A program made the translations under genes and the position numbers. 64,000 bases of DNA from Ensifer sp. (lineage in GTDB: Bacteria; Pseudomonadota; Alphaproteobacteria; Rhizobiales; Rhizobiaceae). The notes under the pieces were generated by a model. The model was not told where the DNA came from. It saw only the letters and a list, made by a program, of their open reading frames with translations, and made no database searches. The DNA lies in contig NZ_DASYHB010000121.1 of the NCBI RefSeq assembly GCF_035999185.1, positions 10,154 to 74,153 on the forward strand, given 5' to 3'. How positions within the stretch are numbered: the stretch's first letter is position 1; each line of letters begins with the position of its first letter. Below, piece after piece: positions 49,318-64,000 of the stretch.

Positions 49318-49502
49318 TGCTCCTGACACCCTTTTGAATGCACTCTATGGATGCGCCAACGGTGGCGAACCGTGAACTGTGGCGGTTTCGCCGATTCGCG
49401 ACGCTTTTCCTGTGAACGCTTTCATGTCGGCAATTGTAAATACGGTCAAGGCCGGTTTCTTAGGGGCGAAAGGGTCGTCCTTGGTTTCCGGCGGAAGGTT
49501 TC

Positions 49503-50048
49503 ATGTCGCGCTTCGATCGAATTTCTACACCCATAGCGGGTCTGATGGTTGTCGAGCGGCAGCGCAGGGGCGACGATCGCGGTTTCTTTTCGCGCTTCTT
49601 CTGCCGCGACGCGCTTGCCGACTTCGGCGGAGGTGGGACGATCGCCCAGATCAACCATACGCTGACGCAGGCGGCCGGCACGATCCGCGGGCTGCACTTT
49701 CAGCGCGCGCCGCATGACGAGGCGAAATTCGTCTCTTGTCTTTCCGGCGCCGTCTTCGACGTCGCGGTCGACCTCAGACCAGGTTCTCCGACCTATCTGC
49801 ATTGGCACGGCGAAGTGCTGAGTGCGGAAAACGGACGCTCGATGATGATCCCTGGCGGCTTTGCCCATGGATTTCAGACGCTCGCAGACGATTGCGAACT
49901 GATCTATCTGCACGACAAGCCCTATGCACCCGAGGCTGAGGGCGGGCTTAATCCGCTCGATCCGCGACTGGCAATCGCCTGGCCGTTGCCGGTCGGGCAG
50001 ATGTCGGCGCGCGACCAGGCCCTGCCTGTGCTGCCGATCGCGAGCTGA
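49503..50048 (+). CDS. rfbC: NDP-4-keto-6-deoxyhexose 3,5-epimerase (RmlC/RfbC family)
   Basis: DDRGFF, IRGLHFQ, VAVDLR, FAHGFQTL, MSARD. Confidence 0.9.
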   Translation: MSRFDRISTPIAGLMVVERQRRGDDRGFFSRFFCRDALADFGGGGTIAQINHTLTQAAGTIRGLHFQRAPHDEAKFVSCLSGAVFDVAVDLRPGSPTYLHWHGEVLSAENGRSMMIPGGFAHGFQTLADDCELIYLHDKPYAPEAEGGLNPLDPRLAIAWPLPVGQMSARDQALPVLPIAS

Positions 50049-50132
50049 TCGCCGAAGCCTCCATCGTTGACTTCGCAGCGGATGGGAGGAGAATGAAGTC
50101 TCCGCGCCACCACGACAGAAGGGGTGTCGACG

Positions 50133-50603
50133 ATGACGATCGCCAGAAAACTTCAGAACTACATCGATGGTGCCGGGGTCGCCTACGACACCGTCGACCA
50201 TCATCGCACGGCCACCACCAGCCAGACCGCCAGGGCAGCGCATGTGCCCGGCAGCAGGCTTGCCAAGTCCGTGGTCGTCCACCATGAGATGGGCTACGTG
50301 CTTGCTGTGGTTCCGAGCACGCACCGGGTCGAGCTCTCCACCCTGCAGGATGTGATGGACCGCCGCCTCGGCCTTGCTTCGGAAGAGGAGGTGTGCACGC
50401 TTTTTGCCGATTGCGATATCGGCGCGGTGCCGCCTGTCGGATCGGCCTATGACGTGCCGGTGCTGCTCGACGAAAGCCTGGGTGCCGTCAACGACGTCTA
50501 TTTCGAGGGCGGCGACCACAGAACGCTGGTGCACATGAGCGGACCGAACTTCCGCAACCTGATGAAGGATGCGCGGATCGCCCGCTTCAGCCACCCGGCG
50601 TGA
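50133..50603 (+). CDS. YbaK/ProX aminoacyl-tRNA deacylase-like protein
   Basis: AKSVVV, LASEEE, GAVPPVG, EGGDH. Confidence 0.82.
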   Translation: MTIARKLQNYIDGAGVAYDTVDHHRTATTSQTARAAHVPGSRLAKSVVVHHEMGYVLAVVPSTHRVELSTLQDVMDRRLGLASEEEVCTLFADCDIGAVPPVGSAYDVPVLLDESLGAVNDVYFEGGDHRTLVHMSGPNFRNLMKDARIARFSHPA

Positions 50604-50796
50604 TCTCAGTTGTTCAGGTCCTCAGGGTCGTCGGTTTCTTCGGCGGCTCCGACCATGGCGCTTGCCCGGCGATATCTCGGGCTCCAACCAGCGGTCGAGA
50701 CGGGCCACGGCCGGAATGCGCCGGGGAGATCTTGTCAAAGTCCCAACTTGGTTGCACCATCACCGGGATAGGCACCTTTTGATGGGGGTGGGGGCG

Positions 50797-51150
50797 ATGA
50801 CGCAGACGACGTCCAGAACTTTGACCAACAGGTCCTTGACCAAATCGCTGGCGGTACTGTCGGTTGCAGCCGCGGCCCAGACCTTCGGCTTGGCGGCATT
50901 TGCGCAGGCCAACATTTTCGACCAGTTTCCAGTCGTCGTCGCATGCGAATACAAGGGCACGCAGCACGCCTTCTATCTGTCCAAGGTGACGGCCGACGGT
51001 ACCGCGACCTATGTGGCTTCGGACAATTTTGCCGGCACGATCACGCTGACGGGTGCGGCCAAGGTGGTCGGCGCCGAAGAGGGTGGGAGCTGCCTTGGAA
51101 AGACGATCGAGGAGCTCAGGGCGTCGGGGCAGGCGCGCGATATCAAGTAG
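50797..51150 (+). CDS. Small exported hypothetical protein
   Basis: Signal-like Ala-rich segment ending AFAQA; two Cys; start uncertain. Confidence 0.6.
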   Translation: MTQTTSRTLTNRSLTKSLAVLSVAAAAQTFGLAAFAQANIFDQFPVVVACEYKGTQHAFYLSKVTADGTATYVASDNFAGTITLTGAAKVVGAEEGGSCLGKTIEELRASGQARDIK

Positions 51151-51446
51151 TCTGGTCGGCGCGCCCGGGCGGCGCGGCGGCCTGGTCCGTCGCCTGCAAC
51201 GAGAATAGCAAGCTATTGTTGGTACACTGTAAAATGCCGAACAGGACCTGAACGGCGTTCGCGTTGTAATTCGTGTTTGGTGGCACAGCCCCTAAGGCAA
51301 AGCGGCGTCAAAACCTGAAGTCTACGGAAAAAGGCTACTTTTCTAAGGTTCGGCGAAAGAACCGCTGCTTTAGAGTTTTCTGTTGTGGCAATCAGAAAAT
51401 CTGATCTACTGCGACCTCGTTGCTTGGCTTTCGGGGGATATTGCCG

Positions 51447-52136
51447 ATGGAGTTGACGCGCAGGGACATGATGCTTGGCAGTTTGGCGCTTCTCGGCGCC
51501 GGTGCGGCTCAGAGGCCGGCTTTTGCCAAGGCGACATCCTATTTTTCCGGCCCGGCCGTCGACAACGGCGTGACCTACCGCAGCACCAACTTCGCCAAGA
51601 TCGATCCGAAATGGCGGCGCCAGGTCGTCAAGTATTTCAGCAGCGAGCCGATCGGCACCGTCGTCGTCGATACGCGGCACCACTTCCTCTACCTGATCAT
51701 GGAGAACAAGACGGCCATCCGTTATGGCGTCGGCGTCGGGAAGGAGGGCTTCAAGTGGTATGGTCGCGCAACGATCGACCGCAAGTCGCTCTGGCCGCGC
51801 TGGACGCCACCGCCGGAGATGCGCGAACGCCATCCCGAACTGCCTGAATTCGTGGACGGCGGTTCGCCCAAGAACCCGCTTGGTCCCCGCGCCATGTATC
51901 TGCTTCGCGATGGCGTCGATACCGGCTATCGTTTCCACGGCACGCTGGAGCCGGGCAGCATCGGCAAGGATGCCTCCAGCGGCTGCATCCGCATGTTCAA
52001 CGAGGATGCGATCGATCTTTATCAGCGCTGCCCGATCGGCACCGCCGTGCAGGTCCTGCCGCATATCGCCGACAAAGCCCCCGAGGTCAGTCAAGCAACC
52101 CCGGCGGCAGTTCCGGTCGCAACCCCGGTCGAATAA
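51447..52136 (+). CDS. L,D-transpeptidase (YkuD family), Tat-exported
   Basis: Twin-Arg LTRRDMML; RYGVGVG, NPLGPRA, HGT...SSGCIRM catalytic motif. Confidence 0.92.
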   Translation: MELTRRDMMLGSLALLGAGAAQRPAFAKATSYFSGPAVDNGVTYRSTNFAKIDPKWRRQVVKYFSSEPIGTVVVDTRHHFLYLIMENKTAIRYGVGVGKEGFKWYGRATIDRKSLWPRWTPPPEMRERHPELPEFVDGGSPKNPLGPRAMYLLRDGVDTGYRFHGTLEPGSIGKDASSGCIRMFNEDAIDLYQRCPIGTAVQVLPHIADKAPEVSQATPAAVPVATPVE

Positions 52137-52150
52137 GGAATATCACCCCG

Positions 52151-52687
52151 ATGCCCGCTATGCCCGGATTTACGAGGCTGCTGTCTGCTGCGGCCATTCT
52201 GCTGACGCTGACCGCCTGCAACACCACCGAGATTGCCGCGGTCGAAGAGCCGGCCGCAGTCCCGATGACCGGAAAGACCGATGACCCGGCGCCCGGTTTC
52301 GAGACGGTTTCTGCCGGCACCGAAGAGGACTTCATCCTCAATGTCGGTCGCCGGACCTACTTCACGCAAGACTCCTCCGCACTCGACAGCGTTGCCAAGG
52401 CAACGCTCGACAAACAGGCGATCTGGCTCAACAGCAACCCGCGCTGGCTGGTCAAGCTGCAGGGCTTCTCCGACGACAGCGGTTCTGCCTCCAAGATGGA
52501 GACGCTGTCGCAGAAACGCGCCGACGCGGTCATGGCCTACCTCGTCTCGAAGGGCGTGGACGCAAACCGCCTGTGGGCGAAGGGCTACGGCAACGATCGC
52601 GAGGTCCGCGACTGCACCGAACGCTCCTGCAAGGTGCAAAACCGGCGGGTGGTAACGAACCTCAGGACGGAACGCGACGAGACTTGA
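52151..52687 (+). CDS. OmpA/Pal-like lipoprotein
   Basis: Lipobox LTAC; EDFILNVG..TYF, LSQKRA, GYG, NRRV. Confidence 0.85.
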   Translation: MPAMPGFTRLLSAAAILLTLTACNTTEIAAVEEPAAVPMTGKTDDPAPGFETVSAGTEEDFILNVGRRTYFTQDSSALDSVAKATLDKQAIWLNSNPRWLVKLQGFSDDSGSASKMETLSQKRADAVMAYLVSKGVDANRLWAKGYGNDREVRDCTERSCKVQNRRVVTNLRTERDET

Positions 52688-53131
52688 GCACGGATCGGTT
52701 CACGACGATTTGCCGGTTTGTGTGGCGGTCGGGAGGAACGGTGAAGTGCGGCCTAGTTGTTGCCGCGGCTCGGCTTGTTTCGCGTGAGATCTTGCCGAAG
52801 GGTCGGGATCGCAAGTGGGTTCAAGGCTTGACGGCGGCAAACGTTCCACTCTTCCAAGATGGCGCGGTGTTTTTCGGTCAAGCGCTGAACGATACTCCCT
52901 GACCAAGTGGCCTATCGTGCGATCTCCCAAGAAATTCGCGACCAGTTCCAGGAATTCGACGCTGCAACACGTCGCATAGTGCTCGACGCTCGACCTGACA
53001 TCTTGGCAATGAGAATCGGCGAACGGATTTCATGTCAGTCGAGGGAGGCCATCCGCGCAGGTGCCGGGGCAAGATCCTCGCTGCGGAAAGCGACCGCGGG
53101 CTCAGCGAACGTTTGTTTTCATTGAAAAAAA

Positions 53132-53208
53132 TGGCGCACCCGACAGGATTCGAACCTGTGACCTTTGGAATCGGAATCCAACACTCTATCCAGCTGAGCT
53201 ACGGGTGC
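53132..53208 (-). tRNA. tRNA-Arg(CCG)
   Basis: Reverse complement folds: GCACCCG/CGGGTGC acceptor, D-arm, TTGGA-TTCCGAT-TCCAA anticodon arm, GTTCGAATC T-loop, encoded CCA; 77 nt. Confidence 0.97.
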
Positions 53209-53532
53209 ATCCGTTGGCGGCAGGGCCGCCGAAGCAGGCTGTGAGCGGTTCTTAGCCTAGCTTGCGTGCGGCTTCAATGGCCAATCGCAAGAGATTGTGG
53301 TAGAAACAATGATCCTTCGCTGCGCTGTTGTCGTGGCGCATCGTTTCGGGCAAACGATGCGTCGGCTGAAGCGCATTATTGTGAAGCGGCATAACCCGCT
53401 TGGTGTAGCTAGAATTGGTCATGCGATCGTCCTTGCGACGACGGATGTCGCATTATAGATTTCATATTATAGAAAATACTAATTTAGATTGCCCGATGCT
53501 CCATTAACGTTTTTTAGCGAGGGGGCAGGTTT

Positions 53533-55077
53533 TTGGCCATTCGAAACCTCACGACCGGAGAACCGGCGTTGGAGAGGCTGCGCTCCGATCCCGCGTTGAT
53601 GTTACTTCTCGCCTTGTCGGCAGTGCTCTTCGTGCTGAACACCTGGAACGGCATCGGCATCCTTCCGGATTCGACCCGCTATATGCAGATCGTCAGCACG
53701 CCCTACGACGCGCCGCTTTACGCGTGGCTTTTGGGCGCCGGCGGATCCCTTGGGCTCGAACTCGAGCATGTCGCGCTGGGCGCTGCATTCCTGCTCTATC
53801 TTCTGAACACCTATCTCGTCTTCTCGCTGTTCAAGACGGCGTTGCCGGACCAGCCGTTCTATGTGACCGTTGGGACGCTGCTGATCATCGTCCATCCGAC
53901 CTTCCTCTGGACGAGCACCATCGCGATGTCCGAGGCGCTGTTCCTGGCGCTGACGTTTCTCGCCGTCCGTTTTTTCATGCGCTACATGCGGGAGCAGGGG
54001 CGGGGGGCTTTGCTAGCGTCGTCGGCCTGCATCGGTCTTGCCATGCTCGCCCGTTTCGTGGCGCCACCAATCGGCGCGGCTTTTGCAACCATTGCGCTGT
54101 TTTACAATTCGGCGCGCTCCCTGCGCCAGAAGCTGGTTGACGTCGTCATCCTTTTTATCGGCAGCGCCGGTATCTTCCTCGCCTGGGTGATCGTCAGCAA
54201 GCTCCTTGTCGGCCGGGCTGTTGGCCGCGCGGTCTGGTTTTATGGCAACGCTGACGCGGAGCGCTGGCTCGCCGGCCTGTCCCTGCTTGCGAGCTTCCTG
54301 TTACCAAGTCAGGTGCCGCAGATCATCCGCATTCCGGTGCTGCTTCTGGCGCTTGTCATTGCAACGGCGGTCCTGGTTTTAACCCTCAAGCGGAACTGGC
54401 CCGAACGCAAGCCCGACGATCGCGATCTGATCGTGCTCATCTTCGGTCTGTTTGGATATTTCTACCTGCTGTTCGTCGTGCTCGCGGTGCATGTGGAGGC
54501 GAACCTGCAGCTCAACTCGCGCTACTCGCTGCCCTTCTATGTCGGGATCATGTTCGTCCTGGTGATTGCAGCGGCAGACTACTGCGGCCGGCGCGCTTCC
54601 GCCCCGGTCGCCCGTCGATCGATCGCCATTATTCTGCTTTGCCTTCTCTCCATCCACACGCTGCGCAGTGCCGCGCAAACCACCGAGGCCTTCCGGGACG
54701 GCGTCGGCTTTCAAAGTACTGCATGGAAATCGTCGCCGATCGTCGGCGCCGTGCGGGCGCTGCCGGCGGACGCGGTCATTTTCACCAATGCCTGCGACCC
54801 GCTGAATTTTCTTACGCGCCGCTGGACGGATTGGATCCCCTCCTACAGCGAGAGGCGGACCGGCCTTGAAAGCGACGCCGGCCCGCTGGATGCGCAGCTC
54901 GTGCGCCTGCGCGAGGATCTGGTGAAAAAGAAGGCCTATGTCGTCTTCGTCGATGCGATCGACTGGCGGTTTTATCTGGTGACGGAGAAGGAGCTGGTCA
55001 AGCTCGCCAAGCTGAAGCTTGTGCGCTCGGAGAGGGACGGCCGCATCTACCAGGCGGAAGATGCCATCGCGCCATAG
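53533..55077 (+). CDS. Polytopic GT-C-type glycosyltransferase (ArnT/PMT-like)
   Basis: Roughly 11-13 hydrophobic segments, PDSTRY in first outer loop, MSEALF, RY..P before a soluble C-terminal domain; TTG start. Confidence 0.65.
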
Positions 55078-55123
55078 GGGGCGCCGGGACAGGAGCATGT
55101 GATCTTAATCCAAGGAGAAGGAC

Positions 55124-56134
55124 ATGCCTGCAAACCAGGAAAACACGACAAGCATCGAAACGGTCGGCGTTCTGCCGCAGCCGCAGGGACAGATGGCCGA
55201 TTACCTGTCCCTTGCCCGCTTCGATCACGTCACAAAGCATGTCTTCATCCTGCCAGGGCTCATCCTTGCCTGTGCGCTCACCGCGCCGGATTTCGCCTCC
55301 CTCGCCATCAACATCCCCGTTGGGCTCCTGAGCGCGGTGTGCATCGCGTCGGCCAACTATGTCATCAACGAGTGGCTGGATCGGGAAAGAGATGCGGCGC
55401 ATCCGACCAAGTCGAAGCGCCGCGCCGTGGTCGTCGAGATGCAGCCCCGCATCGTCTACGGCGAATACCTGCTTCTCGCCATTGCCGGATTGCTGCTTGC
55501 GGCGGTCATCGGCAAGCTGTTCTTCGCGACCTCGGTGCTCTTTCTGCTTTCGGGCATTGTCTACAATGTCGAGCCGATCCGGGCGAAGGACAAACCCTAT
55601 CTCGATGTGCTGACGGAGTGCCTCAACAACCCCATCCGGTTCCTTCTCGGCTGGGCAATCGTCGACCAGGTGACCCTGCCGCCGATCAGCGTGCTCGCCG
55701 CCTACTGGATGGCCGGCGCCTTTCTGATGGCCGCCAAGCGGCTTGGCGAATACCGCGACATTGCTTCCCATGCGGGCGTTGCCGTGCTGAAGAAGTATCG
55801 ACGGTCGTTTGAATACTACACGGAGGAGAGCCTCACGGTTTCCTGCTTCGTCTATGCGATGATGACGGCGTTCCTCTTGGGGGTCTTCCTGGTCAAGTAC
55901 CGGGTGGAATACATCCTCGTCTTTCCGTTCATCAGCGGGCTCTTTGCCGTCTATCTCTGGCTTGCCACCCGCCCGGGCTCGGTGGTGCAACGGCCTGAAC
56001 GGTTGTTTCACTCGCGCCGGCTGGACGTGATGCTGGCCTTGACCGTCATCGTCTTCCTGTTCGCAAGCTTCGTCGACGTGCCGATACTTGACTTCATGGC
56101 CGCCTCGTTCCTCGTGCCGGTATCGTCGCTGTAA
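55124..56134 (+). CDS. UbiA-family polyprenyl-phosphate phosphoribosyltransferase (Rv3806c/NoeC-like)
   Basis: YVINEWLDRERDAAHPTKSKRR, YLDVL, NNPIR, KRLGEYR...YRRSFEYYT. Confidence 0.82.
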   Translation: MPANQENTTSIETVGVLPQPQGQMADYLSLARFDHVTKHVFILPGLILACALTAPDFASLAINIPVGLLSAVCIASANYVINEWLDRERDAAHPTKSKRRAVVVEMQPRIVYGEYLLLAIAGLLLAAVIGKLFFATSVLFLLSGIVYNVEPIRAKDKPYLDVLTECLNNPIRFLLGWAIVDQVTLPPISVLAAYWMAGAFLMAAKRLGEYRDIASHAGVAVLKKYRRSFEYYTEESLTVSCFVYAMMTAFLLGVFLVKYRVEYILVFPFISGLFAVYLWLATRPGSVVQRPERLFHSRRLDVMLALTVIVFLFASFVDVPILDFMAASFLVPVSSL

Positions 56135-56889
56135 TGGTGGGCTCCAGACTGCCGAATGGCGCTGTTGACTGGGATCAATTGCGCCTTGTCGTCTTCGATC
56201 TGGACGGCACGCTCTACGACCAGCGGCGGTTGCGCAGCGTCATGCTGCTGAGGCTTCTTGCCGATGCGGTACGCACGCGCAGTCTCGACAAGCTTCGCAT
56301 CTTGAGGGCCTTTCGGGACTGCCGCGAGGAGCTTGGCGAAGCGATGGCAACGGACATCGCCACACGGCAATTCGCGCTTGCGGCCGAGCGTTGCGGACGC
56401 CCGGTCGCAACCGTGAAGGCAACGGTCGAGGAATGGATCGAGCGCCGGCCTCTCGATATTCTGCGCTCCTGCCGCTGTCGCGGGGTCGAGCGAGTGTTCG
56501 CGGGCCTTGCGGCTGAGGGAAAAACGCTCGCGGTCCTTTCGGATTACCCGGCTGCAAGGAAGCTGAAGGCCCTCGGCCTCGACGCGGACATTGTCGTCTG
56601 CGGGACTGACCCCGAGGTCGGCGTTCTGAAACCGCATCCGGCCGGCCTTGCCCACGTGCTCAACCGTGCGCAGGCAACTCCCGAAACGGCGATCATGATC
56701 GGCGACCGGGTCGACCGTGACGGGGCTGTTGCCAAGGGCCTCGGCATGCGGGCGCTGATCCGCAGTGCCCGGCCGATTGCGGGTGTCGATACATTCCGCG
56801 GCTATGACGACGAAATCTTTCGTCCCCTGACCGAGCGGCTCGGGGTGGCCGCCGCGGCGTCGCCGTCCTCCGTCACGACATCATCTTGA
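56134..56889 (+). CDS. HAD-family phosphatase
   Basis: FDLDGTLYD, LSD, KPHP, IGDR; TAATG coupling to the UbiA gene. Confidence 0.85.
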   Translation: MVGSRLPNGAVDWDQLRLVVFDLDGTLYDQRRLRSVMLLRLLADAVRTRSLDKLRILRAFRDCREELGEAMATDIATRQFALAAERCGRPVATVKATVEEWIERRPLDILRSCRCRGVERVFAGLAAEGKTLAVLSDYPAARKLKALGLDADIVVCGTDPEVGVLKPHPAGLAHVLNRAQATPETAIMIGDRVDRDGAVAKGLGMRALIRSARPIAGVDTFRGYDDEIFRPLTERLGVAAAASPSSVTTSS

Positions 56890-57901
56890 GCAGCCAGAGC
56901 GCGCCCTGCTTGATCGGGGTGCGGTGCGGGCTCTTTGCGGTGACGGCGGCTGCGATCTTGGAACTCTTCAGGTACCAGTCGTAGCTCTCCTGCAGCATGG
57001 CTTCGTTGGAGTATTTCGGGCGCCACCCCATGGCAAGCAGCGGCTCGACGTCGAAGTAGCACTCCTTGTGGTAGGTCAGGTAGTGCCAGGGCACCAGGGG
57101 CGAGACCCGGAGCCAGTGCAGCGTGCGAAGCGTGTTGATGGTGAGGCCCGTCGGCAGGCTTCTCACCTTCGAGGTGCTGCCCGCATAGCGCACCAGGGCC
57201 TCCAGATCGTGGCGCAACGTGCCGAAGCGATCCGTGCCGACGTTGTAGGTGCCGCTCCTGCCGGCGTTCAGCGCCAGCATGTAGAAGTCCATGAGGTCAT
57301 GGGCGTGGACGAACTGGAACTTGATGTTGCCGGATCCGATGACATAGACCGCGCGGTTCTCGGTGATCCATTCGAACAGGATCTGGAAGATGCCGAGCCG
57401 GCCGCTGCCGAGCGTCGCGCGCGGGCGGATGGTGATCAGCGTCATGTCGGCCGCCTGGCAGATTGCCTCGGCCAGTTCTTCGCCGGCGCGCTTGGATTTG
57501 CCGTAGGGCTCGACCGGGCGAAGGGGCGTGGCTGCCGTGATCGGGCCGGAGGGCGGGATGCCATAGGCGGCGGTCGAGCTGACATGGATCAGCGACCTGA
57601 CGCCGGCCCTGGCCGCTTCCTCGCAGACGATGCGCGTTCCCTCGACGTTGACGTTCCAGTAGTCGCGGCCGGCATCCGTCTGCGCCACGAGGGCTGCATT
57701 GTGGTGCACGACGTCGACATCGCGCATGGCGGCCCGCACGCCGTCGCGATCGAGAACGGAGCAGTTGACGAACTCGATGTCCTTTGGACGGGTCTGATCT
57801 TCCCAGACGTCGAGGACCCGCACCTGGTCGCCCTGTTCGCGCAGCCGCCTGGCGGCAAGGTTGCCGATGAAGCCTGATCCGCCGGTGATGAGATGCCGCA
57901 T
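56873..57901 (-). CDS. NAD-dependent epimerase/dehydratase (extended SDR)
   Basis: TGGSGFIG, HNAA, SSTAAYG, YGKSK. Confidence 0.88.
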   Translation of the reverse strand: MRHLITGGSGFIGNLAARRLREQGDQVRVLDVWEDQTRPKDIEFVNCSVLDRDGVRAAMRDVDVVHHNAALVAQTDAGRDYWNVNVEGTRIVCEEAARAGVRSLIHVSSTAAYGIPPSGPITAATPLRPVEPYGKSKRAGEELAEAICQAADMTLITIRPRATLGSGRLGIFQILFEWITENRAVYVIGSGNIKFQFVHAHDLMDFYMLALNAGRSGTYNVGTDRFGTLRHDLEALVRYAGSTSKVRSLPTGLTINTLRTLHWLRVSPLVPWHYLTYHKECYFDVEPLLAMGWRPKYSNEAMLQESYDWYLKSSKIAAAVTAKSPHRTPIKQGALWLLKMMS

Positions 57902-57935
57902 ATGTCCCTCCAGGCCCTCTAAGGGGAGTGTCTGA

Positions 57936-59408
57936 TCAGATCGCTCGATCCTCGAGCGCGCGGGTGACGTTGCGATGGGCGACCGCCATGACGGTGCCCT
58001 GTGGGTTGACGACCGTCGGGCCGCACAGAAGCGAAGCGTCGGCGATGTAGAGATTGGTGGCGCCGTGCACGCGCCCGAACGAATTGGCCGCACACTTCTC
58101 GGCGTTCTCGCCCATCGGACAGGAAGAGAAGAGGTGAAGCGCGGTGGCATTCGCCTGCTTGGGTGGCAGCGTTTCGGGAAGCCTGGCGATGTCTGCCAGC
58201 GACCGCAGCACCGGGTAGCCAGGGATGCTCGGATAGACGGCAAGCGCGCCGGCGGCAAAGAGAACCTCGGCGAGGCGCGCAAGGCCGTCTGCCAGTTCCT
58301 TCAGGTCCGCAGGCTGAAGGCCGACGCGCACCAGCGGGTCGCGAAAGCCGGGCAGGGAGCGTACCTTGCCGGATCCGCCGGTGCTCTGCACGTAGTAGAT
58401 CGCCATGCGCCGCCAATCCTGGTCGACCGTGTCGATCATGTCAGGGTGCGCAGCCATGGCGAGCGCCAGTGCCGGCCGCTTGCTCATCGAGCAGCCCATG
58501 CTGAAACGCGGGTCGAATTCCTTGATCTGGTGCACCGGCTCAAGTTCGCCGGGGGTGTTGAGTTCGTCCGGGAAGACCGCCACCACCTTCAGCATCGGAT
58601 GGAAGCGCAGGCTGTCGCCCACGTGGCGGGTGATGCCCGAGCGTCGCAGCAGCCAAGGGGTTTGCACCGCGCCGCCGGCGATAAAGACGGTTTTCGCCTT
58701 CAGTTCGATCTGGCGCGGTCCGCCCGCGCCGTTGCTGCGCGCCTGGACCAGCCATTGCCCGTTCGACTGGGTGAGTTTGGTGGCGCAGGTCTCGGGCATC
58801 AACATGCCGCCGGCCTGCAGGAAGCGCGGCACGAAGGTTTCCGACATGGATTGCTTGCGGCCGGGCGCGCCGCCCGCCGCACCTGCCGCGTAGGCATAAA
58901 GGCGCGGCACTTCGAGAGATGACCAGCCGAGCCGCCGTGCTCCCTCATCGAGCCGCACCGAAAGTTGCGGCGCCGGGCCCGGCAGGTACTCGACCCTTGC
59001 CACCGCCTCGCAGGCGTCAAAATGCGGGACGAGCTCTTCAAGGCTCAGCGCGTCCACCCGATAGTCCTTGGCCCAGCGGTCAAGAACCGACGATGAGGTG
59101 CGGTGATAGAGGCCCCGGTTGATCTCGCTTCCGCCGCCGACGCAACGCCCTTCGACATAGGCGATCTTGGTGGCGCCGAAGCCGATGTTGACGCCGGCGT
59201 TGCGGTACTTCTGCAAGATTTCTTCGCGGGAGAAATGCGGGGCCGAGTCCAGGGACAGATGCGGGCCTTCCTCGAGCATCAGCACGGATTTTCCGGCTTC
59301 CGCGCATCGGGTGGCGGTCACCGCCCCGCCCGGGCCGGATCCAATGACGATGACGTCGGGGACGAGCCTCTCAGGGGCCGGCCGGCGCTCCGATTGCGAC
59401 AGGTTCAT
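57936..59408 (-). CDS. GMC-family FAD oxidoreductase
   Basis: VIGSGPGG, GRCVGGGSEIN, LHLFSSCPMG, DAS, NPQGT. Confidence 0.88.
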   Translation of the reverse strand: MNLSQSERRPAPERLVPDVIVIGSGPGGAVTATRCAEAGKSVLMLEEGPHLSLDSAPHFSREEILQKYRNAGVNIGFGATKIAYVEGRCVGGGSEINRGLYHRTSSSVLDRWAKDYRVDALSLEELVPHFDACEAVARVEYLPGPAPQLSVRLDEGARRLGWSSLEVPRLYAYAAGAAGGAPGRKQSMSETFVPRFLQAGGMLMPETCATKLTQSNGQWLVQARSNGAGGPRQIELKAKTVFIAGGAVQTPWLLRRSGITRHVGDSLRFHPMLKVVAVFPDELNTPGELEPVHQIKEFDPRFSMGCSMSKRPALALAMAAHPDMIDTVDQDWRRMAIYYVQSTGGSGKVRSLPGFRDPLVRVGLQPADLKELADGLARLAEVLFAAGALAVYPSIPGYPVLRSLADIARLPETLPPKQANATALHLFSSCPMGENAEKCAANSFGRVHGATNLYIADASLLCGPTVVNPQGTVMAVAHRNVTRALEDRAI

Positions 59409-59769
59409 GCTGATAGTCCTGGCCGTAAAGGTCTGAGTAAATACCGAATAATGCCAATGAAACATGGAACTCGACAAAGCGCCGCTTGAACTCCAGGCGG
59501 GACCGCCGCCATTTGTCGAGTTCGCTCAGCCGATTTTCGAGCGGAAGCTGATGAAAAAATTTGCCTCTGCTGAGCAGGGGCCAGGCATTGAAAAGAAGCA
59601 CGAGAATATGGAAGGGCGGACGCAGATAGTCCGGCATCTGCCGGTGGACACGAAGCAGAAATTCCGCGGCGCGCACGCCCAAGGCGCCCCGCTTGTCATC
59701 GACAGAGCCGCGTTCATGGGCAATCGTCTCGCCGAGCGCCAGGATGGCCTGTTGAAAATGCTGCGACAT
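59371..59769 (-). CDS. Small protein resembling gluconate 2-dehydrogenase subunit 3 / GMC partner
   Basis: F..L..E.R...L..W..S...KR helical pattern; overlaps the GMC start. Confidence 0.55.
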   Translation of the reverse strand: MSQHFQQAILALGETIAHERGSVDDKRGALGVRAAEFLLRVHRQMPDYLRPPFHILVLLFNAWPLLSRGKFFHQLPLENRLSELDKWRRSRLEFKRRFVEFHVSLALFGIYSDLYGQDYQHEPVAIGAPAGP

Positions 59770-59948
59770 GACCGAGCCCGTTATCAAACCGGCCCCATCT
59801 GCGGAGCCTGAGACTGTTCTGATGAATACGGCTGCCTGCTCTTTACTGTTAGTATTTCTATCTGCTCTTATAAGCAAAAGCTACTAAAACATTGGTTCCG
59901 GCTGGTCGCCGGTCGTGATCCTCGACTGCCAAATGCTGAGGCAACCGG

Positions 59949-60374
59949 ATGAGACGCCTTCTGGATACGAGCTTTTTCCGCTACTTCGTCTTCGGCTGCA
60001 TTGCGGCGAGCCTGCAGGTGGCGACGCTCGCCTTGCTTGTGGAGATCGTGCGCCTGGCCCCCGTCTATGCGTCTACCGTCGCCTTCTATTTCGCTGTCGT
60101 CGTCAACTATTTCCTGCAGCGACGCTTCACCTTTCGGTCCGACGAGCCGCACCTTCAGGCCCTGCCGAAGTTCCTGGCCGTGTCGACCCTTGGCGCGGGA
60201 ATAAACGCGGTCGCCTTCAGCCTGCTCACCACCGTCATGCACTACGTGTTCGCTCAGGCGCTGGCGCTGCTCCTCGTCTTCTCGGTGAATTATGCGCTCA
60301 GCCGGCTGCTGATCTTCCGCACGCGGCGTGACGATGAAGCGCCTGACACGGGACAGGCTCAAGCGGGCAAATAA
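59949..60374 (+). CDS. GtrA-family flippase-like membrane protein
   Basis: FFRYFVFG, NYFLQRRFTFR, NYALSRLLIFR; four TMs in about 140 aa. Confidence 0.88.
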   Translation: MRRLLDTSFFRYFVFGCIAASLQVATLALLVEIVRLAPVYASTVAFYFAVVVNYFLQRRFTFRSDEPHLQALPKFLAVSTLGAGINAVAFSLLTTVMHYVFAQALALLLVFSVNYALSRLLIFRTRRDDEAPDTGQAQAGK

Positions 60375-60401
60375 AAATGCCGCATCGCGAGGATGCGGCA
60401 T
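60372..60401 (-). terminator. Terminator between convergent gtrA-like gene and xylG
   Basis: ATGCCGCATC/GATGCGGCAT stem with an A-run on the left (U-run on the minus strand). Confidence 0.65.
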
Positions 60402-60442
60402 CGTTGTGATGGTCGGGTTTCCCGACGAAACCGAGCCTCGTC

Positions 60443-61228
<786 letters not shown>

Positions 61229-61240
61229 GGATCGTACTCC

Positions 61241-62578
61241 TTACTTGGCGCGGGCGCGGTAGATAGTGTCGAGCCAGACGGCAACGACGAGGACGACGCC
61301 GACGACGATGCGCTGGAACGGGCTGTCAATCCCCAAGAGCACCATGCCCGACTGTAGTGATTGCATGACGAGCGCACCGATCATGGCACCGGCAATCGTG
61401 CCGACGCCGCCGGCAAGCGAGGTGCCGCCGATGACGGCTGCGGCGATCGTGTAGAGTTCGTCGAGTTCGCCCTGCGCGTTGGTCGCCGCGTTGAGGCGGG
61501 CAGTCGAGATCGCCGCGGCGATGGCGCACAGAATGCCCATCAGCGTGAAGATCTTGACGGTGACCCAGCGCGTCTTGATGCCGGCAAGTTCGGCAGCCTC
61601 GGGGTTGCCGCCGAGTGCAAAGACATAGCGGCCGAAGCGCAGGCGCGTGGCGATGAAGGTCATGACGATGCCGACGGTAATCGCCATCAGCACCGGAATG
61701 GCGATGCCGTGCGAGATCTGCAGTCCGCCGTCCGGCCAGGCGATGCCGTTGGCGTCGGCGTATTTGCGGGCGATGTTGGTCGGCCAGTAGTAGTGGTTGG
61801 CAACCGAGATCGCGCCAAGCACCAGCACGCAGCCGAGGATCGACAGGAAGTATTCGGCCCAGACCGGGCGCAGCGGGAAGCCGAAGCGCTTGCGCTGCTT
61901 GCGCGAGTTGAGGATGGCGCCGACGATGGCGATGCAGGCGATGATGCCGACGATCCAGCTGGCCGTGGCGCCGATCGAGCCTTCGGTGCCGCCGCCCATG
62001 AGGCGGAAGGTGGTGTTCATCGGTGCAACTGTCTGGCCGCTCGTGACGAACCAGGTGGCGCCGCGCCAGACGAGCAGGCCGCCGAGCGTGACGATGAAGG
62101 CGGGCACGTTGAGGAAGGCGATGATCGAGCCCTGGACCGCGCCGATGGCGGCGCCGACGGCGATGCCGCAGGCAAGCGTGATGATCCAGATGGCCGGATG
62201 TTCAAGGCCTAAGAACTGCGGCAGGAACTTCACCTGCATGACGCCCATGACCATGCCGCAGAAGCCGAGCACGGAGCCGACCGACAGGTCGATGTTGCGG
62301 GTGACGATGATCAGCACCATGCCGGTCGCCATGACGGCGACGGAGGAGGTCTGGACCGTCAGGTTCCAAAGGTTGCGCGGCGTCAGGAACAGGCCGCCGG
62401 TCATGATCTGAAAGCCGGCCCAGATGATGACGAGCGCGCCGACCATGCCGAGCAGCCGGGTGTCGATTTCGGTTGCGCGGAAGAACCGCTTCACCGGGTT
62501 TTCGTCCGCGACACGGGCACGGTTTGCCTGTGCACTTTGTGTCTTGCCCTGAGTTTTACCTTGTGTGATGTCGGCCAT
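61241..62578 (-). CDS. xylH: Monosaccharide ABC transporter permease
   Basis: RNIDLSVG, FIVTLGG, GRYVFALGGNPEAA, IAAAVIGG. Confidence 0.85.
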   Translation of the reverse strand: MADITQGKTQGKTQSAQANRARVADENPVKRFFRATEIDTRLLGMVGALVIIWAGFQIMTGGLFLTPRNLWNLTVQTSSVAVMATGMVLIIVTRNIDLSVGSVLGFCGMVMGVMQVKFLPQFLGLEHPAIWIITLACGIAVGAAIGAVQGSIIAFLNVPAFIVTLGGLLVWRGATWFVTSGQTVAPMNTTFRLMGGGTEGSIGATASWIVGIIACIAIVGAILNSRKQRKRFGFPLRPVWAEYFLSILGCVLVLGAISVANHYYWPTNIARKYADANGIAWPDGGLQISHGIAIPVLMAITVGIVMTFIATRLRFGRYVFALGGNPEAAELAGIKTRWVTVKIFTLMGILCAIAAAISTARLNAATNAQGELDELYTIAAAVIGGTSLAGGVGTIAGAMIGALVMQSLQSGMVLLGIDSPFQRIVVGVVLVVAVWLDTIYRARAK

Positions 62579-62740
62579 GGACGTGCCTTCCCCCCACGTA
62601 TGTTGTTGATGTCATCGCGTCAGGCGGCACCAAGAGCCGGAGTGGACGCGACAAGTCCGGTGCGACGGCAAAAGCCGAGCGATCCCCTGAACTGCGGTGG
62701 TTACGCATGCGGGCATTGTCCGCCGCGTCCGCACCTTGTG

Positions 62741-62773
62741 CAAGCGCCGCAACGGGGTGCGTTGCGGCGCTTG
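62741..62773. terminator. Intercistronic hairpin after xylF
   Basis: 14-bp stem CAAGCGCCGCAACG/CGTTGCGGCGCTTG. Confidence 0.55.
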
Positions 62774-62805
62774 TCTCAGTCAGCGCTTGATTTTGCCGAT
62801 GCGGC

Positions 62806-63843
62806 TTACTTGCAAGCCGCTACGTCGCCCTTGACGCCCTGGCACGCTTCAGCCTTGGAGATCCAGCCCGCGTCGATGACGACGTTCAGGTTGTCCTTGG
62901 TGATCGGCAGCGGTGCGAGGAAGACCGACTGCATGGCCACGCCCTTCGGGCCGCCGTTGAAGGCGGTGACGCCGGCGATTTCTTCCATCTTCTTGCCGCT
63001 TGCAAGCTCGGCTGCGATTTCAGCCGCGCGCTTGCCGAGTTCTCGGCTGTCCTTCCAGACCGAAACGGTCTGCGTGCCGAGTGCCACGCGGTTCAGCGCC
63101 GCCTTGTCGGCGTCCTGGCCGGAAACCGGAACGGAGCCGGCGAGACCCTGTGCATCGAGGGCAGCGATTGCGCCGCCGGCGGTGCCGTCGTTGGAGGCGA
63201 CGACCGCATCGACCTTGTTGTCGCTGGCGGTCAGGAACTGCTCCATGTTCTTCTGGGCGTTTTCGGGCTTCCAGCCGTCGGTGTAGGCTTCGCCCACATT
63301 CTTGATCTTACCGGCGTCGACGGCTTCCTTCAGCACTTCCATCTGTCCGGAGAAGAGGAAGTCGGCGTTCGGGTCGGAAGACGAGCCCTTGATGAAGACG
63401 TAATTGCCTTCCGGCTTCACCTTGAACACTTCGCGGGCCTGCATGCGGCCGACTTCCTTGTTGTCGAAGGTGATGTAGAAGGCGGCCGGGTTTTCGATCA
63501 GGCGGTCGTAGCCGACGACCGGAATGCCTTCGGCGGCAGCCTTTTCGATGGCCGGGCCGATGGCGTCGCTGTCCTGGGCAAGCACGATCAGCGCGTTGGC
63601 GCCCTGGGCAATCAGCGACTCGATGTCGGTCAGCTGCTTGGCGGCGGACGACTGTGCGTCAGCGGAGATGTACTTGTCGCCGGAAGCTTCGAGCGCTGCC
63701 TTGATGGCGGCTTCGTCGGTTTTCCAGCGCTCTTCCTGGAAGTTCGACCAGGAAACGCCGACGACCAGGTCTTTCGCCTGGGCAACGGAATGCAGGGAAA
63801 CGATGACGGCAACGCCTGCCATCAGCTTCAAAACGGATTTCAT
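62806..63843 (-). CDS. xylF: D-xylose ABC transporter substrate-binding protein
   Basis: [41 protein letters not shown]. Confidence 0.88.
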
Positions 63844-63948
63844 TTTATCCTCCCGAGTGACGGCCAGCCGAGCGTGCGAACCTCCCGCACCATCCTCCAC
63901 CGGCCCTAGAACGCTGTCGTAGATTGCGCCGCAGCAGGGTGCGGAATT

Positions 63949-63971
63949 ATTTTCTCGACAGTCGAGAAAAT
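63949..63971. promoter_or_regulatory. Perfect palindromic operator candidate upstream of xylF
   Basis: ATTTTCTCGAC-A-GTCGAGAAAAT. Confidence 0.6.
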
Positions 63972-64000
63972 GAATGTCATGGATTTTTCGGGCTGTCAAC

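Follow-up and report, generated by a model that had tools for sequence, protein, structure and literature searches.

We analysed a 64,000-nucleotide stretch of an Ensifer genome (contig NZ_DASYHB010000121.1; below, the window) and identified, at positions 53533-60374, a cassette of seven genes encoding a GT-C glycosyltransferase, a UbiA-fold protein, a HAD phosphatase, a small protein, a GMC-family oxidoreductase, an extended short-chain dehydrogenase/reductase (SDR) and a GtrA-family protein. A preliminary description of this region had listed the same genes, and all seven open reading frames (ORFs) and their domains were recovered by ORF listing and profile searches. The set is far beyond a chance association, and recurs as a unit in other genera. 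From sequence comparison, we think it somewhat probable that the cassette is a self-contained producer of a lipid-linked pentofuranose, which would be remodelled by ring oxidation and SDR-dependent epimerisation and transferred outside the cytoplasm.

We infer the following route. The UbiA-fold protein would join phosphoribosyl pyrophosphate (PRPP) to polyprenyl phosphate, giving polyprenyl-phospho-ribose-5-phosphate, and the HAD phosphatase would take off the 5-phosphate. The soluble GMC enzyme and its 132-amino acid helical partner would oxidise a hydroxyl of the ribose ring on the lipid, forming a ketone at C2' or C3', and the extended SDR would reduce this ketone with the opposite stereochemistry, yielding an epimeric pentofuranose (arabino or xylo). 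In these two steps the GMC enzyme and the SDR would replace DprE1 and DprE2 of mycobacteria with unrelated proteins. The donor would then be flipped by GtrA, and the pentose moved onto an envelope acceptor in the periplasm by the ArnT-like GT-C protein. The preliminary description had proposed such a sequence, from PRPP through a lipid-linked pentose to flipping and transfer. Its outline is supported by the protein families, the conserved PRPP-site residues and the gene linkage that we observed in sequence and structure comparisons, and the chemistry of the GMC enzyme and the SDR stays conditional, epimerisation being one option only.

Predicted synthesis, export and transfer of the lipid-linked sugar

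The UbiA-fold protein is predicted to be a PRPP-using enzyme of the phosphoribosyltransferase type, and a distant relative, not an ortholog, of mycobacterial Rv3806c, to which it is approximately 20-25% identical. Its top NCBIfam match was the decaprenyl-phosphate phosphoribosyltransferase (DPPRS) model NF008977 (69 bits, against a cut-off of 234); NF008976 scored 29 bits against a cut-off of 474, and models for chlorophyll, quinone, heme O and archaeal-lipid enzymes scored 19-41 bits. Rv3806c (8j8j) was the only UbiA-fold match in a single-sequence search of the PDB, and a 20-sequence profile matched Rv3806c with E=1e-6 and AfUbiA with E=0.003.

Structural and mutagenesis studies of Rv3806c have assigned R22, K87, R90, K143 and Y138 to pyrophosphate contacts, K28 and Y70 to the 5-phosphate, N73 to the ribose, and K28 and K191 to binding of decaprenyl phosphate, all of them sites stated to be non-conserved in UbiA prenyltransferases (PMC10994848). 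In a MAFFT alignment of 28 diverse members of the cassette UbiA family, R22, K28, Y70, N73, D77, D81, K87, R90, Y138, K143 and K191 (Rv3806c numbering) were invariant in all 28, and Q135 and Y157 were replaced by G and N respectively. The two canonical UbiA paralogs of the same genome (UbiA and CtaB) lack K28, Y70, K87, K143 and K191. We assigned the UbiA type by this residue conservation and by the ranking of hidden Markov models (HMMs), not by a tree. Both place the protein apart from the quinone and chlorophyll prenyltransferases, and the best NCBIfam and PDB matches to DPPRS proteins, together with the retained PRPP residues, bear out its earlier assignment to the PRPP transferases.

The HAD protein is predicted from its family and gene position to remove the 5-phosphate. 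The stop codon of the UbiA gene and the start codon of the HAD gene share the sequence TAATG, which points to translational coupling, as had been proposed. We surveyed the neighbourhoods of UbiA homologs, which were matched in at least 598 species genomes, and examined 80 loci. A HAD gene adjoins the UbiA gene in 66 of these, and a polytopic protein of 450-600 amino acids is nearly always encoded directly upstream, belonging to the cassette GT-C family, to PMT_2, or to an unannotated family with 8-10 transmembrane segments. GtrA genes are frequent. Thus, the polytopic protein, UbiA, HAD and GtrA form a recurrent module whose tailoring genes vary: there are none in loci of Polaromonas, Hyphomicrobium and Rhizobium, and an SDR alone, with no oxidase, in Bradyrhizobium. 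The cassette genes co-occur widely in other genomes, as the preliminary description had required, both in this survey and in the GMC-anchored one described below. We additionally identified, in Polaromonas and Sphingomicrobium (L014, L019, L024-L027, L053), the order 533-amino acid polytopic protein, UbiA, 604-amino acid polytopic protein, HAD, GtrA; neither polytopic protein matches Pfam, and both probably represent GT-C families yet to be classified.

The GT-C protein consists of approximately ten transmembrane helices and a C-terminal alpha/beta domain of approximately 130 amino acids. An AlphaFold (AF2) model built with 21 homologs (pLDDT 85, pTM 0.87) was compared with the PDB by Foldseek; ArnT (5f15) ranked first (E=4e-8), further matches included STT3/PglB, AftD, AftA, ALG9/12 and Pmt4, and the top 41 were all GT-C enzymes. 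Two residues of the first extracytoplasmic loop, D46 and D59, are invariant. Since a search of the PDB by sequence returned no match, this is a divergent GT-C family. The fold named in the preliminary description is thus upheld by Foldseek, and the GtrA membership by Pfam. We predict that the GT-C protein is a periplasmic pentosyl transferase to an envelope acceptor, and that the GtrA protein flips the lipid-linked pentose. The GT-C family of the cassette also occurs in Sphingomonadales, which are not known to have classical lipopolysaccharide; the acceptor may therefore be something other than lipid A or O antigen.

The small protein, GMC oxidoreductase and extended SDR

The GMC protein contains the N-terminal FAD-binding motif GSGPGG and a C-terminal His/Asn block, in which H426 and N469 are invariant; residues 432-487 of this block align with residues 443-498 of cholesterol oxidase. 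Its top PDB matches, all weak, were cholesterol oxidase, pyranose oxidase and cellobiose dehydrogenase. The motifs of the SDR (TGGSGFIG and YGKSK) are likewise intact. No transmembrane segment or signal peptide was found by simple hydropathy and signal checks in the GMC, SDR, HAD or small proteins. The GMC protein is predicted to be a cytoplasmic oxidase of lipid-linked ribose, and the SDR a keto-reductase or epimerase of the same tailoring module. A periplasmic GMC enzyme, exported by the Tat pathway with the small protein as a hitch-hiker subunit, was rejected, as neither protein has a signal peptide or a transmembrane segment.

The small ORF is a real gene, with homologs 48-93% identical that are annotated as proteins of 130-133 amino acids, and its family comprises 1039 representative clusters. 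It has no match in Pfam or NCBIfam. AF2 predicts a bundle of five helices with good confidence (pLDDT 83), and a fold search of the PDB returned nothing at E<1 (best E=1.2). In metagenomic proteins the same domain is fused to a GMC protein (P0263, 618 amino acids), a HAD protein (P0149, 366 amino acids) and a PMT_2 GT-C protein (P0218, 675 amino acids), although some of these fusions may be gene-calling merges.

A second survey, anchored on the GMC gene, covered at least 269 species genomes, in which the subfamily is 50-94% identical; 79 loci were examined, 58 of them with full flanks. The small protein adjoins the GMC gene in 76 of the 79, an extended SDR lies near it in 61 (directly downstream in 45), and a UbiA-superfamily ORF of the polyprenyl-phosphate phosphoribosyltransferase (PPPRS) type lies within 9 kb in 66, including loci of Cyanobacteria, Verrucomicrobiota, Planctomycetota, Myxococcota, Acidobacteriota and Gemmatimonadota. 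Identities across phyla are 50-60% for the GMC protein and approximately 60% for the SDR. The trio of small protein, GMC oxidoreductase and extended SDR is conserved over at least six phyla. Among the 58 full-flank loci, 31 contain the SDR only, 10 a class-III aminotransferase only, 14 both and 3 neither, so that a carbonyl-consuming enzyme is present in 55.

The aminotransferase characterises a variant order, in which class-III aminotransferase, GT-C, UbiA, HAD, small protein and GMC genes (with or without the SDR) are followed by a flippase-like LPG_synthase_TM gene and a LuxR/HisKA_3 two-component pair. Its layout is like that of a cationic, Arn-like modification that starts from PRPP. We found the variant in Mesorhizobium loti DSM 2626, M. 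qingshengii, Novosphingobium, Sphingobium and Croceibacterium (L011, L029, L009-L045, L101-L133); the aminotransferase and flippase-like genes almost always occur together there, and GtrA is absent. A locus of Rhizobium sp. Root1334 (L094) has a cassette of the window type, with a GMC protein 77% identical, and in addition a class-III aminotransferase and an LPG_synthase_TM gene beside GtrA, and is intermediate between the two architectures.

We identified a second, related cluster in the same genome, on another contig (C89:20485-27262, equivalent to L084:5485-12262), encoding an alpha/beta-hydrolase, a HAD-UbiA fusion (NF006088, 581 bits), a DprE1-like FAD oxidase, an extended SDR 32% identical to that of the cassette, and a class-III aminotransferase 36% identical to that of the Sphingomonadales-type loci. 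The oxidase (NF053785, 329 bits against a cut-off of 500) is the only DprE1-like gene of the genome. The order UbiA, oxidase, SDR, aminotransferase is kept in 63 of 68 Rhizobiaceae loci, whereas no DprE1-like gene was found in either the 80 UbiA-anchored or the 79 GMC-anchored loci, and none shares a locus with a GMC gene. A homologous pair of SDR and aminotransferase is therefore associated with two unrelated flavoenzymes, which amounts to non-orthologous displacement. This displacement is the strongest argument that the GMC enzyme may act on lipid-linked ribose as DprE1 does. The second cluster, which may produce an aminopentose lipid, adjoins a gyrB/parE-like gene, and neither a GT-C nor a flippase gene was found near it. 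Two further ORFs there (C89_565 and C89_236) were set aside as antisense artefacts over the gyrB/parE-like gene and a cytochrome b561 gene.

Several observations weigh against oxidation and epimerisation of the ribose ring by a GMC-SDR pair. The SDR and the aminotransferase share 14 GMC loci and 63 of 68 DprE1-type loci, which is awkward if both were to consume a shared ketone. The associated aminotransferases are nearest to class-III enzymes that use aldehydes, which hints at oxidation at C5 and would leave the SDR without a role as the reductase partner. No enzyme of the cassette reaches the equivalog cut-off of its mycobacterial counterpart, and a maximum-likelihood tree of UbiA proteins, in which Rv3806c and the canonical paralogs were included, was uninformative, its stem branches being saturated (length approximately 10) and without support.

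In an alternative reading with the same skeleton, the GMC enzyme would oxidise the primary C5 hydroxyl freed by the HAD phosphatase. The cassette would then make a pentodialdose, or a pentofuranuronic acid if oxidation took place twice. Relatives with the class-III aminotransferase would make a 5-amino-5-deoxy-pentofuranose, and the SDR would act independently, either as an epimerase of the GalE type, similar to ORF13 of Citrobacter youngae O2, or in the manner of UXS. In favour of this reading, the aminotransferases most resemble the aldehyde-type class-III enzymes PigE, putrescine aminotransferase and acetylornithine aminotransferase; they frequently share a locus with the SDR; the HAD-small protein fusion P0149 ties the partner of the GMC enzyme to the release of the C5 hydroxyl; and the Bradyrhizobium loci have an SDR with no oxidase. 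In aminoglycoside pathways, pairs of GMC enzymes and class-III aminotransferases act on primary sugar alcohols. An aldehyde would, however, have no obvious fate where the aminotransferase is missing, as in the cassette itself and in 31 of the 58 full-flank loci, and the GMC and SDR genes stand side by side and are highly conserved across phyla, as would be expected of a coupled pair. The weak PDB matches of the GMC protein also act on ring carbons, at secondary hydroxyls in cholesterol and pyranose oxidases and at the anomeric carbon in cellobiose dehydrogenase. We consider C5 oxidation unlikely, while giving it real weight.

It is quite improbable that the donor is plain polyprenyl-phospho-ribofuranose and the trio a hitch-hiking neighbour acting on the acceptor or on an unrelated metabolite. 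Many loci of the same UbiA-HAD family do lack GMC and SDR genes, but in 66 of 79 loci, from six or more phyla, a PPPRS-like UbiA gene is found no more than 9 kb from the trio, the small protein is fused to HAD, GMC and PMT_2 proteins, and the cassette travels as a seven-gene unit. We give hardly any credence to a UbiA protein that is a true prenyltransferase, forming a prenylated quinone, an ether lipid or a similar product in a cassette that is not concerned with glycosylation. The protein is a member of Pfam UbiA, and public annotations name its homologs 4-hydroxybenzoate polyprenyltransferase; against this, DPPRS models outrank every prenyltransferase model, the PRPP-binding K/R cluster is conserved with Y70, N73 and K28 and is lacking in the real UbiA and CtaB paralogs, and the gene is flanked by GT-C and GtrA genes.

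Extending the epimerisation reading, we tentatively propose that the trio may be a phylum-spanning, DprE1/DprE2-independent means of remodelling polyprenyl-phospho-ribose through a lipid-linked carbonyl sugar. The SDR would convert this sugar into an epimer in the Ensifer cassette, and the aminotransferase would convert it into an aminopentofuranose in Sphingomonadales, Mesorhizobium and some Rhizobium, where export by an MprF-like flippase-domain protein under two-component control would constitute an Arn-like cationic modification made from PRPP. We hold this wider proposal to be possible, but somewhat doubtful.

Relation to known pentofuranose pathways

Lipid-linked pentofuranose donors were long held to be a mycobacterial speciality, a view that was generalised only in 2024, and to our knowledge such donors are tailored in only two known ways, by DprE1/DprE2 and by the ORF13 SDR. 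Three-component pentofuranose glycosylation has been described in Citrobacter youngae O1 and O2 (ORF15, ORF14 and ORF12, with the ORF13 epimerase), in a study in which oxidoreductases of the GMC/partner/extended SDR type, rhizobia and sphingomonads are not mentioned (Kelly et al. 2024, PMC11127046). The cassette is a GtrA-using variant of these systems and of the mycobacterial decaprenyl-phospho-arabinose (DPA) route. It shares with the C. youngae systems the PRPP-dependent UbiA-fold synthase, the HAD phosphoribose phosphatase, a flippase, a GT-C protein and the optional cytoplasmic epimerisation of lipid-linked ribose by an SDR. In contrast to the C. youngae fusion, synthase and phosphatase are encoded by separate, coupled genes; there is no gene for a MATE flippase, but one for GtrA, as for Rv3789 in mycobacteria. 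The GT-C transferase of the C. youngae systems is of family GT136, and the GT-C protein of the cassette matches PMT_2/ArnT. The tailoring enzymes also differ, being the GMC oxidoreductase, its 132-amino acid partner and the extended SDR, and the cassette lies outside any O-antigen locus.

The likeness to the mycobacterial DPA pathway (Rv3806c, Rv3807c, DprE1, DprE2, Rv3789 and the Emb/Aft GT-Cs) lies in the order of steps, the PRPP and lipid-phosphate residues of Rv3806c, the GtrA-type flippase candidate and the logic of an FAD oxidase followed by an NAD(P)H reductase. The phosphatase of the cassette is a HAD protein, whereas the mycobacterial one is a PAP2 protein (Rv3807c); the oxidase has a GMC fold and a partner, compared with the VAO fold of DprE1; and the reductase is an extended SDR, compared with the classical SDR DprE2. 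The Arn pathway, which modifies lipid A with 4-amino-4-deoxy-L-arabinose (Ara4N), resembles the cassette in its transferase, ArnT being the top structural match, in its lipid-phosphate-linked pentose donor and in its small-protein flippase, and relatives of the cassette further resemble it in their added aminotransferase, flippase-like protein and two-component system. Unlike the Arn donor, that of the cassette would be built from PRPP on the lipid and not from a UDP-sugar, and genes for an aminotransferase, a formyltransferase and a deformylase are missing from the cassette.

The preliminary description had also drawn an analogy with rhizobial Nod-factor arabinosylation, for which the literature describes a DPA-like route in Azorhizobium (noeC and downstream genes). 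This analogy adds nothing. As that description itself stated, the window is free of nod genes, judged by its annotated ORFs, and the cassette is also found in non-symbiotic Sphingomonadales and in other phyla.

Our literature searches found no paper linking a GMC enzyme to polyprenyl-phospho-ribose. The type of pathway is already published, and the tailoring module of small protein, GMC oxidoreductase and extended SDR is undescribed. The cassette and its relatives point to a third tailoring solution, a GMC flavoenzyme with a partner of no known family or fold, that spans at least 269 species genomes of Alphaproteobacteria, Cyanobacteria, Verrucomicrobiota, Planctomycetota, Myxococcota and Acidobacteriota. 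Working out the trio could provide new donor sugars, possibly aminopentoses, and enzymes for glycoengineering, and may explain unassigned envelope modifications of rhizobia and sphingomonads that possibly affect symbiosis, phage sensitivity and peptide resistance. The Ensifer cassette is a convenient test case, being compact, self-contained and present in a genetically tractable host.

Gene calls and genomic setting

The features of the cassette and its borders are listed below. The small ORF overlaps the GMC gene by 38 nucleotides, and the convergent HAD and SDR genes overlap by 17. A 469-amino acid version of the SDR in the ORF list is an over-extension, as every profile alignment begins at residue 128-131. 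Simple hydropathy gave approximately ten transmembrane segments for the GT-C protein, 6-7 or more for UbiA and four for GtrA.

Features of the cassette and its borders in the window
Feature	Positions	Strand	Details
GT-C glycosyltransferase	53533-55077	+	514 aa; Pfam PMT_2, 32.2 bits; ~10 TM
UbiA-fold predicted polyprenyl-phosphate phosphoribosyltransferase (PPPRS/DPPRS-like)	55124-56134	+	336 aa; UbiA, 68 bits
HAD phosphatase	56134-56889	+	251 aa; Pfam Hydrolase/HAD_2, HAD 61 bits; DLDGT motif
Extended SDR, GalE-like	56873-57901	-	342 aa; Pfam Epimerase, 135 bits
GMC-family FAD oxidoreductase	57936-59408	-	490 aa; GMC_oxred_N (PF00732), 92 bits, and GMC_oxred_C (PF05199), 60 bits
Small partner protein of GMC	59371-59769	-	132 aa; no Pfam match
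GtrA-family protein, predicted flippase	59949-60374	+	141 aa; PF04138, 79.7 bits; 4 TM
Hairpin followed by T-run, between convergent GtrA and xylG	60376-60402	-	consensus scan only
tRNA-Arg(CCG), left border of indel, outside the system	53132-53208	-	ARAGORN
Indel block	53281-60437	.	7157 bp; blastn of S. meliloti pSymB locus (L001) against the window
aa, amino acids; TM, transmembrane segments.

The genome is that of an Ensifer of the E. adhaerens group. The gap between the tRNA-Arg gene and xylG measures 104 bp in S. meliloti pSymB and 7157 bp here. Both sides of the block (window positions 53126-53280 and 60438-64000), containing the tRNA-Arg(CCG) and the xylG/H/F ABC transporter genes, are syntenic with pSymB of S. 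meliloti and S. medicae at 83-97% identity. Sequence homology with both S. meliloti pSymB and genomes of the E. adhaerens group begins at the tRNA, and E. adhaerens L18 and Ensifer sp. LC11 can be aligned exactly from the tRNA across the cassette and the xyl operon.

A mobile island integrated at the tRNA was rejected: neither a tRNA-derived direct or flanking repeat nor an integrase was found around the indel, and the tRNA adjacency is confined to the E. adhaerens group. The position beside the tRNA, which the preliminary description had highlighted, is thus without meaning for the system. The same seven-gene unit was identified without the tRNA in other contexts, in other Ensifer, in one Mesorhizobium and in one Pararhizobium. 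The cassette is an accessory module that travels as a unit among these three genera. Within the genus, the GMC gene is present in 6 of 23 species genomes, and in one of the six it is in two pieces. This ortholog (G001:C1:2624322-2625787) is split into overlapping pieces corresponding to residues 1-226 and 210-491, and is probably a frameshifted pseudogene, which suggests that the cassette is dispensable.

Upstream of the tRNA, no alignment was found with E. adhaerens L18 or Ensifer sp. LC11, and this region is strain-specific. The CDP-sugar cluster, the L,D-transpeptidase gene and the OmpA gene located there are therefore unlinked to the cassette. The CDP-sugar cluster (39-50 kb) had been a candidate maker of the acceptor, and is weakened as such, because homology with even the closest relatives stops at the upstream side of the tRNA. 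Two ORFs (49446-50594 and 50569-51150) have no Pfam match, and are followed, just upstream of the tRNA (51420-52687), by the L,D-transpeptidase (YkuD) gene and the OmpA-family gene.

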